Of a stretch of 20,175 nt of DNA, positions 5,799 to 20,166 are shown one piece after another. Each line of letters begins with the position of its first letter. Positions within the stretch are counted from its first letter, which is position 1. The notes beneath the pieces were generated by a model. That model was not told where the DNA came from, ran no database searches, and was given only the letters and a program-made list of their open reading frames with translations. The position numbers and the translations under genes are program-made. Origin of the DNA: Gemmatimonadales bacterium (GTDB lineage Bacteria > Gemmatimonadota > Gemmatimonadetes > Gemmatimonadales > GWC2-71-9). The DNA is taken from NCBI GenBank assembly GCA_041615815.1, contig JBFJCP010000048.1, positions 1 through 20,175 of the forward strand. Direction: 5' to 3'.

Positions 5799-5944
5799 CG
5801 ACACTCCTGGATTCGGGTTCCTGCTCACTGATAGATGGACGTGTCGGCACAGGGGATGCAAGCCTCGATAACACCGCTCTTCACATTGGGCCGCCGGAGC
5901 GACAGGATACTCCTACCTGTTCCACTCGTGTAATGGGAGATCAT

Positions 5945-7084
5945 ATGGCCGTACTCGATATGCGGTGCTCGATCCTCTTTTTGGCCTTGCTAGGAAGCCT
6001 CGGCGGGAGTGCGGAAGCACAGGGCGAGGACCACGGCTTTGTCTATTTCTCGAATGTGACTGGCGCCACCGCTGCCGATCAGGTGCTCACAACCGTGGAA
6101 GATCAGACCGTGCGGGCGCTGGATCGTCTGGGCGAGCTGCTGCGAGAGCGGGGATTGGACTACCGCCACGTCGTGGTCTCGAACGTGTTTCTGAAGGACA
6201 CGAGGCACTTTCCCGCTATGAACGCGGTGTATCGGCGGTACTTCGCGACCGATCCGCCCACCAGAGCGACCGTTCGGGCCGATCTCCCCGATCCCGATGC
6301 GCTCATTCAGATCTCAGTCGTCGCGGCACGGGGCGACAAACACGTGGTCGTGCCGCGCGGGATGCAATCACCGGCCCTGCCATACTCCTGGGGGATCAAG
6401 GTGGGCCAGACCTTGTTCATCGCCGGCGCGACGAGCAGAAGTCCCGAAACCTACCAGCCGGTACCCGGTGACGTGGCGACGCAGACGCGAAGGATTCTGG
6501 GCAACGTCGGACTGGTACTCGACGAAGCGGGAATGGACTACGGAGACCTCGTGAGCTGCCGAGTGTTTCTCGACGACGCCCGGCGGTTCGGCGAAATGAA
6601 CCGCGCCTACGCCGAGTTCGTGTCTAGGGAAGACCCGCCTGCCCGTGCCACCGTGCGGTCGGGTTTGATGAATCCTCTTTTCGATGCGGAAATCCAATGC
6701 ATCGCTGAGCGATCAACACGACGAGAAGTCGTCGTCGGTGCAGGTCGGCAGCGGTCCCGCTCGCCGTTCTCGCCGGCGATATCGACGGGCAATCGTCTCT
6801 ACCTGGCCGGAATGGTGGGGAGCGGGTTCGATGGCGTGCCGGCGCAGGTGATCGGTCAGACGCGAAACGCGCTGGCGAACCTCGAGGCCACACTCGCTGC
6901 AGCCGACATGGATTTCACGGACGTGGTTGACGTGTGGGTATATGTCACCGATATCCGCCAGTGGAGCGACGTACAAAACGTGCTGCAGGAGGTGCTGCCA
7001 GCGGGCCTGCCGCAGACCGTGGTCGGGACGCCGCTCATGGGCAGCAGCCTCCTCGTGGAGATTCAGATGGTGGCGGAGCGCTAG
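5945..7084 (+). CDS. Predicted exported RidA/YjgF-family protein with three tandem Rid domains, about 379 aa
   Basis: Three repeats of the Rid core (QTxRxLxxL/V...G/DMDxxxVV...VFL/VYV...PPxRATV...xE/QIxxxA). Signal peptide ILFLALLGSLGGSAEA-Q. GGGAGA RBS before ATG 5945 (ATG 5933 or 5960 are alternatives). Confidence 0.9.
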   Translation: MAVLDMRCSILFLALLGSLGGSAEAQGEDHGFVYFSNVTGATAADQVLTTVEDQTVRALDRLGELLRERGLDYRHVVVSNVFLKDTRHFPAMNAVYRRYFATDPPTRATVRADLPDPDALIQISVVAARGDKHVVVPRGMQSPALPYSWGIKVGQTLFIAGATSRSPETYQPVPGDVATQTRRILGNVGLVLDEAGMDYGDLVSCRVFLDDARRFGEMNRAYAEFVSREDPPARATVRSGLMNPLFDAEIQCIAERSTRREVVVGAGRQRSRSPFSPAISTGNRLYLAGMVGSGFDGVPAQVIGQTRNALANLEATLAAADMDFTDVVDVWVYVTDIRQWSDVQNVLQEVLPAGLPQTVVGTPLMGSSLLVEIQMVAER

Positions 7085-9462: not shown

Positions 9463-9629
9463 GGGGCTCCTCATGAGAGCGGAACGCCGGATCCGCGCCA
9501 CTCGCGGATCATGTTTCCGGAACGCATCTTCATGTCGTTCAATGAATGATAGCACCAGGAGAAGCGAACGGACGTGCACAACATGATCATGCCCGGGCCG
9601 CAGAGGAAGCCGCACACCAGGGACGGTTC

Positions 9630-10091
9630 GTGACCGCCCGGCACCTCAAGCTCGGCCTCGTCATCTTTTGGGCGGTTTGGTCATCGGTCGTCTTTCTCAC
9701 AAACGTCACCGACGCACTGCGTGAGATGGGTGTACTTCCGCCCGAGTACCCCTTGGCCTCCGGCAACTACGCGGCTGTGGTGGAAGTGACGGCGATTTAC
9801 CCCCTCCCCGGTGCTGTTGCCGGGCTCCTCTTCACCATCGTGCTCGTCTGGGAGGGCGGAAACGCAGCGTTGTTCTGGCGCGCCCTCCGGCTGCGGACGC
9901 GGTGGCAGGGCGGCGACCTCCGATCCGTGAACACCGCGTTCATCGTGGCGCTCGCGCTCTGGGCCGCCTTCATGGTAATGGATGAAGTGTTCCTCGCATA
10001 CAAGGTCGCCAGTTTCGAGCAAACCCACCGCGCGATCTTCATCGCAATGCTCGTATCGTTCTTGGCGGTGAGGTTATTGCCGGATCGGTGA
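9630..10091 (+). CDS. Small integral membrane protein (about 4 TM), resembles DUF2165, 153 aa
   Basis: Four hydrophobic segments; N-V-T-D after TM1, W-E in TM2 and F-M-x-x-x-E-x-F after TM3 recall DUF2165 from memory. GTG start at 9630 is inferred. Confidence 0.7.
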   Translation: MTARHLKLGLVIFWAVWSSVVFLTNVTDALREMGVLPPEYPLASGNYAAVVEVTAIYPLPGAVAGLLFTIVLVWEGGNAALFWRALRLRTRWQGGDLRSVNTAFIVALALWAAFMVMDEVFLAYKVASFEQTHRAIFIAMLVSFLAVRLLPDR

Positions 10092-11633: not shown

Positions 11634-13091
11634 ATGAAGACGACGCAGGAAACTCCTCCCTCTCGGCCGGCGATCCACGTATATGTCGCCGGGCAGGACA
11701 CGTCCGCCAAGTTCATGCAGGCCTTCCACATCGGGCGCGCGCCGAGCAACGATGTCGTCCTGGATGACGAGTCCGTGAGTCTCGAGCATGCCGAAGTCTG
11801 GTACGAGCGGGGACAGTGGTGGATACGAGACCTCGACAGTACCAACGGGACGATCGTCGGTGGGCGCGCCGTGGACCAAGCGCCGGTGACAGGGTCGCTC
11901 AAGCTGCGACTCGGCTTCGACGGCCCCGCGCTCACTCTGTCGTTGGAGGGAGCCGAGCATCACCGTCGCGAGACTCTCGCGACACAACCCTCGGATGACG
12001 AGATCGTCGAGCGGTATCTCGGCGACGAGGAACCGGATGACATGAGCAGGCGCACCGAAATGGTGCGACGGGTCTTGAAGCACGAACACGAACGGCGCTC
12101 GCAAAAGTACGTCTTCTTTCTCCTGATCCTCTTTCTCACCGCCGTCGGAGCAGGCGCCTACGCCTTCATTCAACGCCAGGCGGTGCAGCGACAGCGGGCG
12201 GCAGCGGCGGAGCTATTCTACGCCATGAAGGCCGTGGAGTTGGACGTGGCCAGTTTGCAGCTGAGCGCGAGCGAGCAGCAGACCTATCGTGACCGTCGCG
12301 CAGATCTCGAAAAGCGCTACCAGAATTTCATCGAGGAGTTGGGCATCTACGGAGCCGGAACTCCGGAGGTTGAACGACTCATCTACCGTGTCGTCCACAA
12401 GTTCGGAGAATCCGAAGTCAACGTTCCGAAGGCGTTCATCAAGGAGATCCGGCGCTATATCGACCGTTGGAAACGCTCCCCCCACCTCCCAGAAGCGATC
12501 GCTCGGGCCGGCAAACAGTCTTACGGACCGAGAATAGGGCAGATCATGCTGCAGCATGACATGCCGCCCGAGTTCTTCTACTTGGCACTCCAAGAGAGCG
12601 AATTCAAGCTCGAAGCGGTCGGTCCACAAACCCGTTTCGGTATCGCGAAGGGGATGTGGCAGATGATTCCCGGGACCGCGCGTGCGTACGGTCTCAAGAC
12701 TGGACCGCTCGTTGGAACCCGACGATACGATCCTCGCGACGACCGTCACGATTTCGAGAAGTCCACGGCGGCCGCCGCCGAGTACCTCCGCGACATCTAC
12801 ACGACTGACGCACAGGCCTCCGGACTGCTCGTCATGGCATCGTACAACTGGGGGCAGACCCGGCTTCTCCGCTTGATTCGCACGTTCCCAGAAAGCCCGG
12901 AAGAGCGGAACTTCTGGAAACTCCTGTCGCGATACCGCGACCGAATCCCGCAGGAGACCTACGACTACGTTCTCAAGATCGTGTCGGCCACGGTGATCGG
13001 TGAGAATCCGGCCTTGTTCGGACTGCAGTTCGACCCGCCGCTGGCATTTCTAGACGACCCGGCTGCCCAAAGCGAGCTCTTCGGTCCCTGA
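11634..13091 (+). CDS. FHA domain - transmembrane helix - MltD-like lytic transglycosylase (SLT) fusion, 485 aa
   Basis: FHA: IGRAPSNDVVL, VSLEHA, DLDSTNGT. TM: YVFFLLILFLTAVGAGAYAFI (about 12108-12170). SLT: LALQESEF (Glu 12594-12596), AKGMWQMIPGTA, ASYNWG, PQETYDYVLKI. Confidence 0.9.
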   Translation: MKTTQETPPSRPAIHVYVAGQDTSAKFMQAFHIGRAPSNDVVLDDESVSLEHAEVWYERGQWWIRDLDSTNGTIVGGRAVDQAPVTGSLKLRLGFDGPALTLSLEGAEHHRRETLATQPSDDEIVERYLGDEEPDDMSRRTEMVRRVLKHEHERRSQKYVFFLLILFLTAVGAGAYAFIQRQAVQRQRAAAAELFYAMKAVELDVASLQLSASEQQTYRDRRADLEKRYQNFIEELGIYGAGTPEVERLIYRVVHKFGESEVNVPKAFIKEIRRYIDRWKRSPHLPEAIARAGKQSYGPRIGQIMLQHDMPPEFFYLALQESEFKLEAVGPQTRFGIAKGMWQMIPGTARAYGLKTGPLVGTRRYDPRDDRHDFEKSTAAAAEYLRDIYTTDAQASGLLVMASYNWGQTRLLRLIRTFPESPEERNFWKLLSRYRDRIPQETYDYVLKIVSATVIGENPALFGLQFDPPLAFLDDPAAQSELFGP

Positions 13092-14744: not shown

Positions 14745-16178
14745 TTAGTTCACCCTCTGAAGTAACACCTGGAACCTCGGGTCGTCTTGAAGTGCAGCGA
14801 AACTGGGATCCCCCCGGAGGGTGGCGGCTGGTACGGGCACGTTGGAGACATAGCACTCGAGCTCCGCCAGAGCCTCCTCGCTCCGACCGAGTTGGGCAAA
14901 GGCGCGAGCGCGCTGGATGCAGAGACGCGGGTGGCCTGGTTTTACCACTTCCGCGATCGCGAGCATGGCGAGGGCGTGCCGAGGACGTTCCTGTTCGAGG
15001 AACATTCGGGGCTCGTAGAACGAGCTCCGTGAGAACACGTTCTCCAAGAGACGCTGCGCGGCTTGCGCTCGGAGACGATTATCGGTGTTCGCCGCATGGC
15101 GCTGGAGCTGCTCGACATCCAGCCGTTCGAGGGCTTGCTCCAGCGACGGAGGATCCTCGGCCGAGTCGACTTCGCCAAGAAACCGTTGCAGCTGTGCCAA
15201 GTACCTCGAGAAACGATCGACAGCAGCCGTGAGCTCTTTGCTCGTCTCCTGAACCTCAGGGGCGGTTCCGAGTCGTCTCGCCTCCGCCGCGGCCGCGTCC
15301 ACGTCACGAAGCCCCTCGAAGTCCTCGACCATGGCCTGATAGCGCTCGAAGGCCTGGTAAAGGTCTTGAGCCTCCAGGTGTCGCGCAGCATCCTCTGCCC
15401 GTGCGCGATAGAGGGAATCGATGAGAGCGGTGTCCCTCTTGCGGAGTCCATCGAGCATCGCACCGAGCTCCATCCACTCTATGGCACGCTCGAGAACGTC
15501 CTGCGGTGGCCAGGAGTGGGAGCCCTCGAAATACTCGATCCGATGGCGAATTCCGAACGCCTCCAGGGCGTCATCGAGCGCTCGGACCTCGTCGAAGTTG
15601 AAATCCGCAGTCCCGACGGCCCCGTAGTACGCGAACGGGGTTCCCATGGCCGGAGTGATGCGTGACAGGAATGCAGGCTCGGGGATGCCGGCGCCGAAGC
15701 CGATCACCCCTGCCACGTGCCCGCTCAACTGATATCCGAATAGCCAGCTCACGCGGGCCGTCCCTGAGAATCCAACCAGGTAGATTCGTCTCACGTCGGC
15801 AGCGAAACGGCGCTCGGTCTCGTCCACCAAGGCTTCGAGGGCCCGAGCATTGGGCTCGTGCGGGCCATCGCTCAGGGTATTGTACGAGCTCAGGACGATA
15901 TAGCCGCGGCGCTCAGCCACCGTTCGCAGCAAGCGCATCGGTACGAGAGCCCTGCCCCGCGGATCCATGGCGTAGATGATGGGCCATGCTCGATCCTCGC
16001 GGTATGCCGAGGGCAGATACAGCGCATAGGCCTGCGCAGAATCCGAGCGAGCGACAACCCGCTCCACGATCTCACCGAGCGGGAAGTCCCTCCCGCGGTG
16101 AGGCGATTCCTGGGCGAGCGCGCTGGAGCCTGCCACCAGCAGGACAACGACCGACGCCATTGGGCTGCGCATTTGCAT
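14745..16178 (-). CDS. Secreted alpha/beta hydrolase (esterase-like) with helical/TPR-like C-terminal half, about 477 aa
   Basis: YALYLPS, MDPRGRA, GFSGTAR elbow, GTADFN (Asp), FEGSHSWP (His); C-terminal ARAFAQLGRSEEALAEL...DPSFAALQDDPRF typical of TPR-type tails. Start uncertain (ATG 16178, 16172 or 16160). Confidence 0.8.
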   Translation of the reverse strand: MQMRSPMASVVVLLVAGSSALAQESPHRGRDFPLGEIVERVVARSDSAQAYALYLPSAYREDRAWPIIYAMDPRGRALVPMRLLRTVAERRGYIVLSSYNTLSDGPHEPNARALEALVDETERRFAADVRRIYLVGFSGTARVSWLFGYQLSGHVAGVIGFGAGIPEPAFLSRITPAMGTPFAYYGAVGTADFNFDEVRALDDALEAFGIRHRIEYFEGSHSWPPQDVLERAIEWMELGAMLDGLRKRDTALIDSLYRARAEDAARHLEAQDLYQAFERYQAMVEDFEGLRDVDAAAAEARRLGTAPEVQETSKELTAAVDRFSRYLAQLQRFLGEVDSAEDPPSLEQALERLDVEQLQRHAANTDNRLRAQAAQRLLENVFSRSSFYEPRMFLEQERPRHALAMLAIAEVVKPGHPRLCIQRARAFAQLGRSEEALAELECYVSNVPVPAATLRGDPSFAALQDDPRFQVLLQRVN

Positions 16179-16357
16179 CAAACGATACAACTCGAATCCG
16201 AACGGATGTCACACCATACACGACGGCCGATGGGAGGTTTCACCAACGGCCACTGGCGAGCGGTTCGCGCAAGGCCAATCTTTCCTTCGCCATACGACGA
16301 CCGCGTCGTCGTCCGCGTCTCGCGAATAGGCCCTCCACGTTCTCAAGGTCTCGAGCG

Positions 16358-19138
16358 ATGCCGATCATGACAGCCTTCGTACTTCCTGCACTGCTTCTCC
16401 TGCTCCAAGCCAGCGATTCCGTTATCGGAGGTGCGCGAGATCCTGCGCTGGCACCGGACGGGAGACTGGCGGTGAGCATTCGCGGTGATCTGTGGGTGCG
16501 CATGGCCATGCCGGATACCAACCGCTGGATCCAAGTCACCTCGGATCCTGCCTGGGATCGACAACCTGCCTGGAGTTCGGATGGCGAAGGCATCGTTTTC
16601 GCGTCGGATCGGGCCGGATCATTTGCCATTTGGCAGATCCCGATGGCGACTGGCGCGGGCGAGCCCGTGCGGCTCACCACGTCCGTCGAGTTCGAAGGCG
16701 AGCCGAGTGTGGGTCCCGGCGGGGGGGTGGTGTTCGTCCGAGGTTTGGGACCGATGGCACGGCTCTGGATCCGGGAGGCCACGGGGGAGGAGCGCCGCCT
16801 CACGGACGGAAAGTCGGCAGAGCGATGGCCATCCGTGTCGCCGGACGGAGCGAAGGTCGCCTACGTCTCCATCCGCGAAGACCGTCACGAGCTGCGGGTA
16901 TGGTGGCGGGACGGCGATTCGAGCAGCACGGTCCTACGGAACCGGTGGGCCGAATCTCCCACGTGGTCACCCGACGGTCGGCATCTGGCCTTTGCGACGC
17001 GTAGAGGCGAGCCAGGGGTCTGGATAACAGCATCGACCGGCGCCTGGGTGAACCTGGTGACTCGTCGGGCGGCGCAGCCGGCCTGGACCTTTGACGGAAA
17101 GACCGTGGTGTTGGTCGAGTTGCCCGGCGCCGATCCGGGCTACAACGGTGATCCCGATCGCCTCGGAGATCGCGACGCTTCCGATGTGTTTCCCGATGCC
17201 GGCGCGATCTGGACGATCCCAGCGCCATCCGTGCCGGATGCGGGGCTGGCTGTTGTGGCCATATCCCACACCGGTGATCGTCGGGCGGCCAACCGTCACG
17301 CGTTCGAGCGCATCTGGGATCGGACGGCGCAACTCTATTACGGACCGATGGATGCGGATCCACGACGGGCGCGCTGGAAGGAGCTCGGAGACAAGTACCG
17401 GTCGCTCGCCCTCGACGCTTCCACAGACGTGGAGTTCGAAACGATCGTCCACCGAATGTTGGCGGACCGTCCTCCACTGCGACGCGCGGCCACGGGGCGC
17501 GCGGCCGTGTCCAGCGCGCACCCCGTGGCAACCGAAGCGGGGCTGGAGATTCTGCGACGTGGCGGCAACGTGGTCGACGCGGCGATTGCCGTCTCGTTCG
17601 CGCTCGGCGTGGTCGAACCGGATGCGAGCGGCATCGGCGGCTACGGCCAGATGCTCATTCACCGGACCGGAATGACGTACCCCGCGCTCATCGAGTTCAT
17701 GACCAAAGCGCCCGAGGAGGCCACACTCAGTAACGCGGCCCTTCTCGACGGCGGCGACTATCCTGATGACGGGCCGGTTTTGGCAAACGTACCGGGCACC
17801 GTGGCGGGTATGTACCTCGCGCTCCAAAAGTATGGGAGCGGCCGCGTGAGTTGGGCGGAGATCATCGATCCGGCCATTCGGGCGGCGGAAGCAGGATATG
17901 AAGTCAGTGATGGTTTGGCCACGACGCTCGCCCGCGAGCGCGAGCGATACCTGAAGTATGAGGGGCCGCAGGCACTTTTCTTTCGCGACGGTGAGCCGCT
18001 GCAGGCCGGAGACACGCTCAAGAACCCCGATTTGGCGTGGACCCTGCGACGAATTGCCGAGGACGGACCGGAGGCGTTCTACAGCGGCGAGGTGGGACGC
18101 CGGATGGTACGGGATCTCCGCGGGAAGGGAAACGCCATGCGGATGAGCGATCTCGAGCGGTATTTCGCCGTGGAGCGGGAGCCCGTGTCCACGACGTACC
18201 GAGGCCATACGGTGTACTCCAGCACGCCGCCGGTCTCGGGTGGGTCCAGCCTCGCCGCGATGCTCAATCACCTGGAAGGCTTTCGGAATCCTCGACCCTA
18301 CGCGGAGGATGCCGCCACCTTGCATGCGATGATCGAGGCTTGGAAGCTCACACCGCCGGGGTTCGGGCGTATCGCAGATCCAGGACTCTGGCCCGTCGAG
18401 ATCGAAACATTTGTGAGTAAGGACTCCGCGCGCACGCGCTGGAGTTGTTTCCAGTCCGCCCGCGCTCTCACGTATGCCGACGTTCGCCCGGATTCGCTCC
18501 CCTGTCTGGAACGGGACACACCGGCCACGGACGGCAAACGGGGGGGTACGACCTCGTTCGCAGTGGCCGACGCGGATGGTAACGTGGTGGCCGTAACCCA
18601 AACACTCGGGACTTGGGGGGGGAACTTCTACGTGACACCTGGTCTGGGCTTTATCTACAACGACAAGCTCACGTCGTATGCGACCAACCCGGATCGATTC
18701 GGTGCAAGGTTACCGCACGCGCGGCACTCGAGCAGCATCACGCCGACGATCGTGTTTCGCGGCACTGGCAATCGCGCCCGACCTGTCCTCGCCACCGGTG
18801 CTGCGGGAAACCGGTGGATCACGTCCGCCGTCTATTCCATCGTCGTCGGAGCGGTGGATCAGGGGTTGGATCCTCAGCAGGCTATCGAGCTGCCCCGCAT
18901 CTTGCTCACGACCCGTTCGAGCGGCGATGCCACCTCGCGGCGGTACATTGTCCAGGTCGAGGACATGATCGCCCCTTCCGTCATCCGCCGTCTGGAAGCG
19001 CTCGGCCACGAGTTGCAGGTGATCTCGCTCAAAGGTGAGCTTCGGATGGGATACGCCGCTGCCGTGGCTATCGGAAACGGGTCGGTGACGGCGGGCGCAG
19101 ATCCACGACGATCGGGAGCGGCGGGAGCCATACGCTGA
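16358..19138 (+). CDS. Gamma-glutamyltransferase (Ntn hydrolase) family protein fused to N-terminal PD40/TolB-like beta-propeller and helical linker, about 926 aa
   Basis: Six PD40-like repeats (P-x-W/V/L-S/x-x-D-G) about 16430-17120. GGT motifs SSAHPVAT, GGNVVDAAIA, VEPDASGIGG, VPGTVAG, TTSFAVADADGNVVAVT (Thr nucleophile 18548-18550), GADPRR. Signal-like N-terminus from ATG 16358 or 16367. Confidence 0.9.
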   Translation: MPIMTAFVLPALLLLLQASDSVIGGARDPALAPDGRLAVSIRGDLWVRMAMPDTNRWIQVTSDPAWDRQPAWSSDGEGIVFASDRAGSFAIWQIPMATGAGEPVRLTTSVEFEGEPSVGPGGGVVFVRGLGPMARLWIREATGEERRLTDGKSAERWPSVSPDGAKVAYVSIREDRHELRVWWRDGDSSSTVLRNRWAESPTWSPDGRHLAFATRRGEPGVWITASTGAWVNLVTRRAAQPAWTFDGKTVVLVELPGADPGYNGDPDRLGDRDASDVFPDAGAIWTIPAPSVPDAGLAVVAISHTGDRRAANRHAFERIWDRTAQLYYGPMDADPRRARWKELGDKYRSLALDASTDVEFETIVHRMLADRPPLRRAATGRAAVSSAHPVATEAGLEILRRGGNVVDAAIAVSFALGVVEPDASGIGGYGQMLIHRTGMTYPALIEFMTKAPEEATLSNAALLDGGDYPDDGPVLANVPGTVAGMYLALQKYGSGRVSWAEIIDPAIRAAEAGYEVSDGLATTLARERERYLKYEGPQALFFRDGEPLQAGDTLKNPDLAWTLRRIAEDGPEAFYSGEVGRRMVRDLRGKGNAMRMSDLERYFAVEREPVSTTYRGHTVYSSTPPVSGGSSLAAMLNHLEGFRNPRPYAEDAATLHAMIEAWKLTPPGFGRIADPGLWPVEIETFVSKDSARTRWSCFQSARALTYADVRPDSLPCLERDTPATDGKRGGTTSFAVADADGNVVAVTQTLGTWGGNFYVTPGLGFIYNDKLTSYATNPDRFGARLPHARHSSSITPTIVFRGTGNRARPVLATGAAGNRWITSAVYSIVVGAVDQGLDPQQAIELPRILLTTRSSGDATSRRYIVQVEDMIAPSVIRRLEALGHELQVISLKGELRMGYAAAVAIGNGSVTAGADPRRSGAAGAIR

Positions 19139-19257
19139 TCATCCAACTGCATTTGCAGCCCGGTCATCGCCCGAGCAGTTTGTACCTATGGCTACGGCGG
19201 CGTGGGCGCCAGGCCTCCCGCGACCGCCGTCATCGCACTCGCTCCCCCGGAGAAACC

Positions 19258-20166
19258 ATGCGTCTGCGTGGAACCCTGCTGACCTTGTTCTCGCTGTTCG
19301 TGACCCAGCCGCTCATTGCACAAACCGTGCTGCAGAAGCAGGGCCGCTACTCTCCGGGCACGCGGGTCGCGTCCCCATGGAGCGGTGTTTCATTCGTGAT
19401 ACCGGCCGATTTCGTCGCTGGCTTCGATACCGACGCAGAAACCATCTTGCTGACGTCTCCAGCTCGACCCGGTGTAGCCGTGGGTGTGTATGCGTACTCG
19501 GAGACGGATCTCGAGGAGATGGCCGACATGGTGGTCGCTCACTTGGGGAAGCTGGGCATTCAGCTCACACCTCTCGAGCCGCCAGTGCAGGATGCGAGTA
19601 CCGCGCGAGGGTGGTATCAGGCCCTCACGCCGGATGGTCCGGGTGTCCTGTACGGCGTGGTGAGGACCGGCGCGCCGGGAAACGCCATCGCCGTGGTGGC
19701 GCTGAGCCCGGCAGGACAGGACTCGGTCATCCGGCCGTTGGTGGACGATCTCCTGGCCTCGACGCAGTTCTCTCGCCCCAGTGCCGCCGATTGGCGTCGG
19801 CAAGCGGGAGGGCAGCGATTCTCCACGTCAGGTGGGAGCTCGGATTACAGTCCCGGTGGTGCGGGAGCCGGTGGTATGGCCTCGAGCCGCGACGCCGAAT
19901 TGGAGCTGTGTAGTGATGGAACGTACGGATATCAGTATCGCTCGGAGATGTATATCTCGGTGGAGGGAGCCGGATCCGCGGAGCGAACGGAGCAGGATCA
20001 ACATCAAGGACGTTGGTGGCTCGTCGCGGACCTACTCGGCACTGCCACCTTGGTCTTAGAGGCCACGGACGGTCGCGAGTTCTTTTGGCCGGTGGCTGAG
20101 CAGCAACGAGCCGTGCTGATCAACGAGACGAGCTTTTATGCCGCGCCGAGCGCGCGGTGTCCATGA
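19258..20166 (+). CDS. Secreted hypothetical protein, 302 aa
   Basis: GGAGA RBS then MRLRGTLLTLFSLFVTQPLIA-Q signal peptide; protein-like composition; no family recognised. Confidence 0.8.
   Translation: MRLRGTLLTLFSLFVTQPLIAQTVLQKQGRYSPGTRVASPWSGVSFVIPADFVAGFDTDAETILLTSPARPGVAVGVYAYSETDLEEMADMVVAHLGKLGIQLTPLEPPVQDASTARGWYQALTPDGPGVLYGVVRTGAPGNAIAVVALSPAGQDSVIRPLVDDLLASTQFSRPSAADWRRQAGGQRFSTSGGSSDYSPGGAGAGGMASSRDAELELCSDGTYGYQYRSEMYISVEGAGSAERTEQDQHQGRWWLVADLLGTATLVLEATDGREFFWPVAEQQRAVLINETSFYAAPSARCP

Follow-up and report, generated by a model that had tools for sequence, protein, structure and literature searches.

We analysed a 20,175-nucleotide stretch of a Gemmatimonadales genome (assembly GCA_041615815.1, contig JBFJCP010000048.1; the whole stretch is called the window below) with a focus on a gene that encodes three RidA/YjgF-type (Rid) domains in a single chain, a so-called 3x-RidA. 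The open reading frame at 5945-7084 on the plus strand yields 379 residues with no internal stops. It stands alone in the window, with a divergent 2OG-Fe(II) oxygenase gene on one side and a convergent alpha/beta hydrolase gene on the other. We consider the product to be probably an exported single-chain RidA ring that acts as a periplasmic imine/enamine deaminase with two sites, while the third inter-domain cleft would be a structural seam. Clefts are named by the domains that form them (1/2, 2/3 and 3/1). RidA numbering, given with three-letter residues, was anchored on the canonical RidA of the same genome (L001) together with the TdcF pocket, whose seven conserved residues are Tyr17, Gly31, Asn56, Asn88, Arg105, Pro114 and Glu120 (PMC1884159). 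Conservation was counted in a close set, consisting of the best 120 of 501 protein-search matches (query included; other members 59-72% identical), and in a sister set of 119 proteins outside it, which came from a search with the nearest outgroup P0123 (best 120 of 913 matches). The features of the gene, all on the plus strand, are the following.

5935..5939, plus strand: GGGAG, by its sequence a likely ribosome-binding site, 5 nucleotides upstream of the ATG at 5945
5945..7084, plus strand: triple-Rid (3x-RidA) gene, 379 amino acids, stop included; PF01042 in three stretches; TIGR00004
5945..6019, plus strand: likely Sec signal peptide, residues 1-25 (Arg, hydrophobic run, predicted cleavage AEA/Q)
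6020..6334, plus strand: Rid domain 1, residues 26-130; Arg face F89, N93, R107 intact; Gly31 replaced by N37, Glu120 by Q122
6335..6715, plus strand: Rid domain 2, residues 131-257; both faces intact (Y147, G161, N187, E249; N219, R234)
6716..7081, plus strand: Rid domain 3, residues 258-379; Tyr/Glu face kept (F275, G289, N312, E372); Pro114 replaced by M365
6263..6265, plus strand: R107, Arg105 equivalent of site 1/2; 120/120 in the close set, 119/119 sisters
6689..6691 and 6383..6385, plus strand: E249 and Y147, probable partners of R107, the pairing being drawn from co-loss
6644..6646, plus strand: R234, Arg105 equivalent of site 2/3; 120/120 in the close set, 119/119 sisters
7058..7060 and 6767..6769, plus strand: E372 and F275, probable partners of R234
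6308..6310, plus strand: Q122, Glu120 to Gln, in the degenerate 3/1 seam
6053..6055, 6974..6976, 7013..7015 and 7016..7018, plus strand: N37, Q344, Q357 and T358, other residues of the 3/1 seam
6557..6559 and 6698..6700, plus strand: C205 and C252, likely cross-strand disulfide; both 120/120, with covariation

The sole Pfam family in the protein was PF01042, found in three stretches (214 bits against a cut-off of 27.3, E 5.5e-64), and domains 1, 2 and 3 each exceeded the cut-off when taken separately (61.7, 88.8 and 70.9 bits). The TIGR00004 score of 171.8 bits also lay above its cut-off of 106.25, but this total is a sum over the three domains; the cut-off of the RutC model TIGR03610 was missed even with three domains counted (120.5 versus 169.1 bits). 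A first-pass annotation of the DNA letters had proposed exactly three Rid domains in one chain, and this count was borne out, as were its codon positions for R107, Q122 and R234. Its reading of the catalytic faces also held at the level of single residues. Domain 1 keeps the Arg face (F89/N93/R107) and has lost the Tyr loop, since it begins at the third strand, strands one and two being deleted along with the Tyr17 loop, and it carries the Gly-to-Asn and Glu-to-Gln changes (N37, Q122). Domain 2 keeps both faces (Y147/G161/E249 and N219/R234) and further carries M242 in place of Pro114 and the cysteine pair C205/C252. Domain 3 keeps the Tyr/Gly/Glu face (F275/G289/E372), its Asn88 and Arg105 being gone and now represented by Q344 and Q357. 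The combination of Arg105 and Asn88 with a neighbouring Glu120/Gly31 is complete at clefts 1/2 and 2/3 and absent at 3/1. Site 1/2 retains six of the seven conserved pocket residues, and site 2/3 retains five of the seven plus a Tyr-to-Phe change, with Pro114 being Met in each.

The first-pass annotation had further proposed that the chain folds as a pseudo-trimer with two intact sites, in which both degenerate faces meet at the 3/1 interface. In support of this, single-chain structure prediction was confident (predicted template modelling score, pTM, 0.89) and the whole chain matched the closed pseudo-trimer of PDB 5A3K. The chain is thus predicted to close alone into the usual RidA ring, with the Arg face of domain n pairing with the Tyr/Glu face of domain n+1. 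The handedness of this ring was drawn from co-loss, in that faces 3 and 1 were observed to be lost together.

The residue pattern turned out to be a family trait. R107, N93, F89, Y147, G161, N187, E249, R234, G289 and Q122 were invariant in the close set (120/120), and N219 (119/120), E372 (119/120) and N37 (111/120) were nearly so. At the Arg105 position of domain 3 Arg was found in 0/120, Pro prevailing there (90/120), Asn at the Asn88 position of the same domain was likewise found in 0/120, and the P[FYL]S Tyr-loop motif occurred in domain 1 of 0/120. Given this near-total conservation, the pattern, for which the first-pass annotation had recommended a comparison of homologues, is not a matter of chance. 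Met at the Pro114 position was found in 118/120 for M242 and in 80/120 for M365. The 'Tyr' position of domain 3 was Phe, Leu or Tyr in 55, 47 and 17 of the 120, which indicates that the second site (2/3) is less constrained than the first (1/2). Mean entropies for the two faces of each cleft were 0.00 and 0.02 bits at 1/2, 0.32 and 0.64 bits at 2/3, and 1.53 and 0.97 bits at 3/1, where the alignment of the domain 3 loop is ambiguous. By record title, the best 80 genome loci belonged to Gemmatimonadota (69), Acidobacteriota (4), Gammaproteobacteria (4) and others (3). The gene is patchily distributed, with 16/201 genomes of a phylum sample carrying it at E <= 1e-40 and 2/21 near relatives at full length.

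Several features had gone unmentioned in the first-pass annotation, namely the signal peptide, C205/C252, the change of Pro114 to Met, and the variable domain 3 Tyr. The N-terminus makes it likely that the protein is exported from the cytoplasm via a Sec signal peptide. After its removal, residues 26-379 would have an estimated mass of roughly 38-39 kDa. Residues 6-19 appear in the structure model as a low-confidence helix outside the fold, and a hydropathy heuristic called a signal-like N-terminus in 107/120 close homologues and in 60/88 distant triple-Rid proteins, with some of the misses being truncated entries. Among 370 Rid domains, 55 had both cysteines, 1 the first only, 25 the second only and 289 neither, and the pair was present in 24/60 signal-like versus 1/28 other triple-Rid proteins (counts that ignore kinship). 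On the basis of invariance, covariation and this association with the signal peptide, C205 and C252 probably form a disulfide, which would mark an oxidising compartment. The cytoplasmic RidA of the same genome (L001) is without the cysteine pair. This genome also encodes a RidA of one domain that has the same pair and a signal-like N-terminus (G000 C11, L002:1483-1929, minus strand; TIGR00004 116.8 versus 106.25 bits), and its sequence suggests that exported single-domain Rids exist beside the triple form. Five signal-like triple Rids (P0201, P0142, P0215, P0235 and P0249) carry the pair in all three domains; as P0201 comes from a eukaryote transcriptome, the exported triple form may extend beyond bacteria.

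All three sites were kept in 63/119 sisters, with P0126 and P0270 as examples. The domain 1 aromatic was kept in 0/34 sisters without the domain 3 Arg, and it was already gone in 21/85 sisters that retain this Arg. P0364 is one example of an intermediate in which the Arg is still present. In a tree that combined the 119 sisters with 30 members of the close set, built with the 3/1 columns excluded and with the root not inferred, the query clade was starred (99) and adjoined a starred 19-row clade without the domain 1 face but with the domain 3 Arg (join support 93). Because no sister without the domain 3 Arg keeps the domain 1 aromatic, and because the adjoining clade retains the Arg, the likely order of loss begins with the lid and Glu of domain 1, continues with Asn88 and Arg105 and ends with the change of Gly31 to Asn; the direction of loss presupposes that the three-site RidA is the ancestral state. 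Fusion may have freed the three sites to diverge, after which the two N-terminal strands of domain 1 (the Tyr lid) would have been deleted and its Glu exchanged for Gln before the Asn and Arg of domain 3 decayed. In a wider set, the Arg of domains 1, 2 and 3 was kept in 77, 74 and 58 of 88 proteins, with 7, 11 and 17 changes on the corresponding tree, so that site 3/1 was lost most often. Other triple-Rid lineages lost site 1/2 or 2/3 instead, and site loss is therefore a tendency that triple fusions share rather than one unique to this gene. Four triple Rids without a signal peptide (P0231, P0232, P0248 and P0265) lack Arg105 in all three domains and keep Tyr/Gly/Glu; by these residues they are triple forms of the Rid4-7 type. 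Further variants include fusions to Amidohydro_2 (P0121), haem-binding PF14376 (P0141) and HAD hydrolase (P0176) domains and a six-domain Rid chain (P0256).

With two complete residue sets, both under full constraint, the protein is best read as an imine deaminase with two sites. Imine hydrolysis is determined by Arg105, RidA also acts on imines released by flavin adenine dinucleotide-dependent amino-acid oxidases, mutation of Glu120 has little effect in S. enterica RidA (PMC4433059), and Rid1-3 proteins that carry the Arg are active (PMC5619798). By analogy with RidA chemistry, R107, held by N93, would bind the carboxylate of a 2-imino acid, Y147, G161 and E249 of domain 2 would complete the pocket, and water would hydrolyse the imine to a 2-oxo acid and ammonia. 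R234 and N219 with F275, G289 and E372 could carry out the same reaction at a second, more relaxed site, and the exchange of Pro114 for Met may alter which substrates are preferred. The physiological source of imines might, as a guess, be exported flavin amine or amino-acid oxidases. The same genome encodes two DAO-family flavoproteins with twin-arginine-like leaders (G000 C10, L100:1399-2625, and G000 C24, L096:1414-2592); their nearest models, N-methyltryptophan oxidase and glycine oxidase ThiO, scored below cut-off in both cases.

A number of results speak against the two-site exported deaminase. A scan of 24 neighbour families at 81 loci found no flavin oxidase, and neither candidate oxidase follows the distribution of the gene, one having matches in 7/16 carriers and 36/185 other genomes and the other in 1/201, the genome of the query only. 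Pro114, one of the seven conserved pocket residues, is replaced by Met at both live sites, and the signal peptide was assigned by the hydropathy heuristic alone. Co-loss of paired faces was not significant after control for the tree, either at site 1/2 (6.5 versus 0.6 of 10, p 0.06) or at site 2/3 (3.7 versus 0.2 of 14, p 0.22), and for site 2/3 the plain 2x2 table was not significant either (p 0.55). If the ring had the opposite handedness, or if the chain were open or oligomeric, R107 would meet the domain 3 face and R234 the degenerate face of domain 1, leaving one canonical site only, or degenerate faces that pair between chains. We regard this arrangement as extremely improbable, because the three counter-handed pairings were without co-loss (rho -0.14, -0.09 and -0.11; independent pairs 1.9 versus 2.0, 4.0 versus 2.6 and 4.3 versus 1.9) and the confident single-chain model matches a closed pseudo-trimer. 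The seam itself also has near-fixed replacements of its own in the close set (Q122 120/120, W331 119/120, T358 118/120, V343 116/120, N37 111/120), of which Q, V and T prevail at fractions of 0.89, 0.88 and 0.96 in the 56 sisters without the site. Together with the Arg or Lys found at the domain 3 Asn88 position in 61/120, this makes reuse conceivable, with the same ring and two live sites and a 3/1 seam that binds a ligand or a partner protein via Q122, N37 and the surface bared by strand loss, and AtzD is a precedent for the gain of new sites in concatenated Rid rings (PMC3758960). We nevertheless judge reuse unlikely. The Asn88 position holds 11 different residues, the domain 1 Asn56 position is variable, the lid loop is deleted, and the 3/1 site has been lost repeatedly, in several lineages whose replacements differ. 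Moreover, the fixed replacements sit at positions with documented packing roles, since in TdcF Glu120 forms a bond to the main chain of residue 107 on the other side of the interface and the conservation of Gly31 is put down to tight space (PMC1884159), and position 106 bonds the Glu122 equivalent (PMC4960622). A filled structural seam at 3/1 seems to us clearly more probable than reuse.

Cytoplasmic pyridoxal phosphate enzymes make 2-aminoacrylate, the classic substrate of RidA, and an imine-producing neighbour or co-occurring oxidase was not found (81 loci; 201 genomes). Both points would suit an exported protein whose Arg105 pockets bind 2-oxo or amino acids without useful catalysis, or a holdase-type stress chaperone; chlorinated E. 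coli RidA is such a chaperone. The TdcF pockets are indeed known to bind ketobutyrate, serine and propionate (PMC1884159). Nevertheless, every Arg105-bearing Rid subfamily tested in the cited work deaminates imines (PMC4433059, PMC5619798), and neither a transporter nor a sensor was ever a consistent neighbour at the 81 loci, so we give this explanation little credence. Gene neighbourhoods were not conserved with the window, and the neighbours that recurred were mostly secreted hydrolases, the commonest being amidase (31/81 loci), creatininase-family (13/81; Gemmatimonadota and Acidobacteriota records) and peptidase genes. These neighbours, the homologue P0121 with its fused amidohydrolase, and Met at Pro114 in both sites would fit a different C-N hydrolysis at the two live sites, comparable to the 2-aminomuconate deaminase branch, in periplasmic nitrogen scavenging beside secreted amidohydrolases. 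However, the amidase link comes mainly from closely related Longimicrobiales records, no neighbour of the amidase, creatininase or peptidase type flanks the gene in the window, and secreted hydrolases are common throughout the window anyway, which makes such a role a long shot.

The same genome contained two further Rid genes. One (G000 C3, L005:76-1842, plus strand) joins an aldo/keto-reductase-like part, as judged by eye, to a C-terminal Rid domain without Arg105, and the other (G000 C8, L003:820-1890, plus strand) has a Rid domain 3' of an aldehyde dehydrogenase-like gene and by eye resembles 2-aminomuconate deaminase. Elsewhere in the window, all on the plus strand, we noted a fusion protein in which a hydrophobic segment separates an FHA domain from a lytic transglycosylase (SLT) domain (11634-13091), a gamma-glutamyltranspeptidase fused to a PD40 beta-propeller with a weak tricorn C1 match (15986-19138), and two apparent genes with no Pfam match, for a small hydrophobic protein (9546-10091) and a probably secreted protein (19153-20166).

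Rid proteins have so far been studied as homotrimers of the cytoplasm or of organelles, in which the three sites are equal. A single-chain form that is exported would point to imine chemistry in the periplasm, and a single chain permits one site to be changed at a time, which is impossible in a homotrimer. As three-site, intermediate and two-site relatives coexist, the path by which symmetric RidA trimers gave rise to asymmetric pseudo-trimers such as chorismatase or AtzD becomes directly testable. The significance would be lesser if the protein were a redundant RidA that has shed one site. A more far-reaching view, which we find doubtful but worth stating, is that exported, disulfide-marked Rids form a broad and unrecognised branch devoted to periplasmic damage control or new C-N chemistry, in which the clefts of triple forms specialise; the present clade would then be intermediate between RidA and one-site pseudo-trimers of the chorismatase kind, with two differing sites and the third seam reused for binding.

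Compared with the RidA/TdcF/YjgF homotrimers, the protein has the same fold (single-domain root-mean-square deviation 1.3-2 Å, 27-35% identity) and, at site 1/2, Tyr17, Gly31, Asn56, Asn88, Arg105 and Glu120. It differs in being one chain rather than three, in having two sites rather than three, in Pro114 being Met, in its signal peptide and cysteine pair, and in a domain 1 that is short of two strands. The chorismatases FkbO and Hyg5 (PDB 5A3K, 5AG3 and 4BPS) share the single-chain, three-repeat YjgF-like fold, but they perform chorismate chemistry and have one active site. Identity to them is 15-17% in structural alignments, RidA-like residues are kept at two sites of the query, no chorismatase was among 51 PDB sequence matches at E <= 0.001, and Pfam gives PF01042 alone. 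The catalytic Glu334 of Hyg5 lies close to the C-terminus, as does E372 (PMC7170507). Structures of YjgF-derived pseudo-trimers have been solved for chorismatases, AtzD and the FIST domain (PMC11185555, PMC3758960); in AtzD/barbiturase (the Toblerone fold) catalysis has moved to the central barrel and FBXO22 FIST has no obvious pocket, whereas the present protein keeps the outer inter-domain clefts. The name 3x-RidA dates from 2015, when such proteins, for example Enterococcus faecalis EF_0115, were presumed to be linked trimers (Niehaus et al. 2015, PMC4433059). The query is a triple Rid chain by sequence and a covalent trimer unit by prediction (pTM, 5A3K match and 3-to-1 co-loss). The accessible part of that account gives the name and the presumption, without export, disulfide or site asymmetry, and its supplement scores Gemmatimonas aurantiaca with 0 copies. 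The term was found only there within the literature searched, and no description of an exported or asymmetric 3x-RidA was found in that literature, subscription papers lying outside the search. Altogether, the architecture is already known, and what appears to be new is export, the cysteine pair, the handedness given by co-loss, and a stepwise loss with living intermediates.
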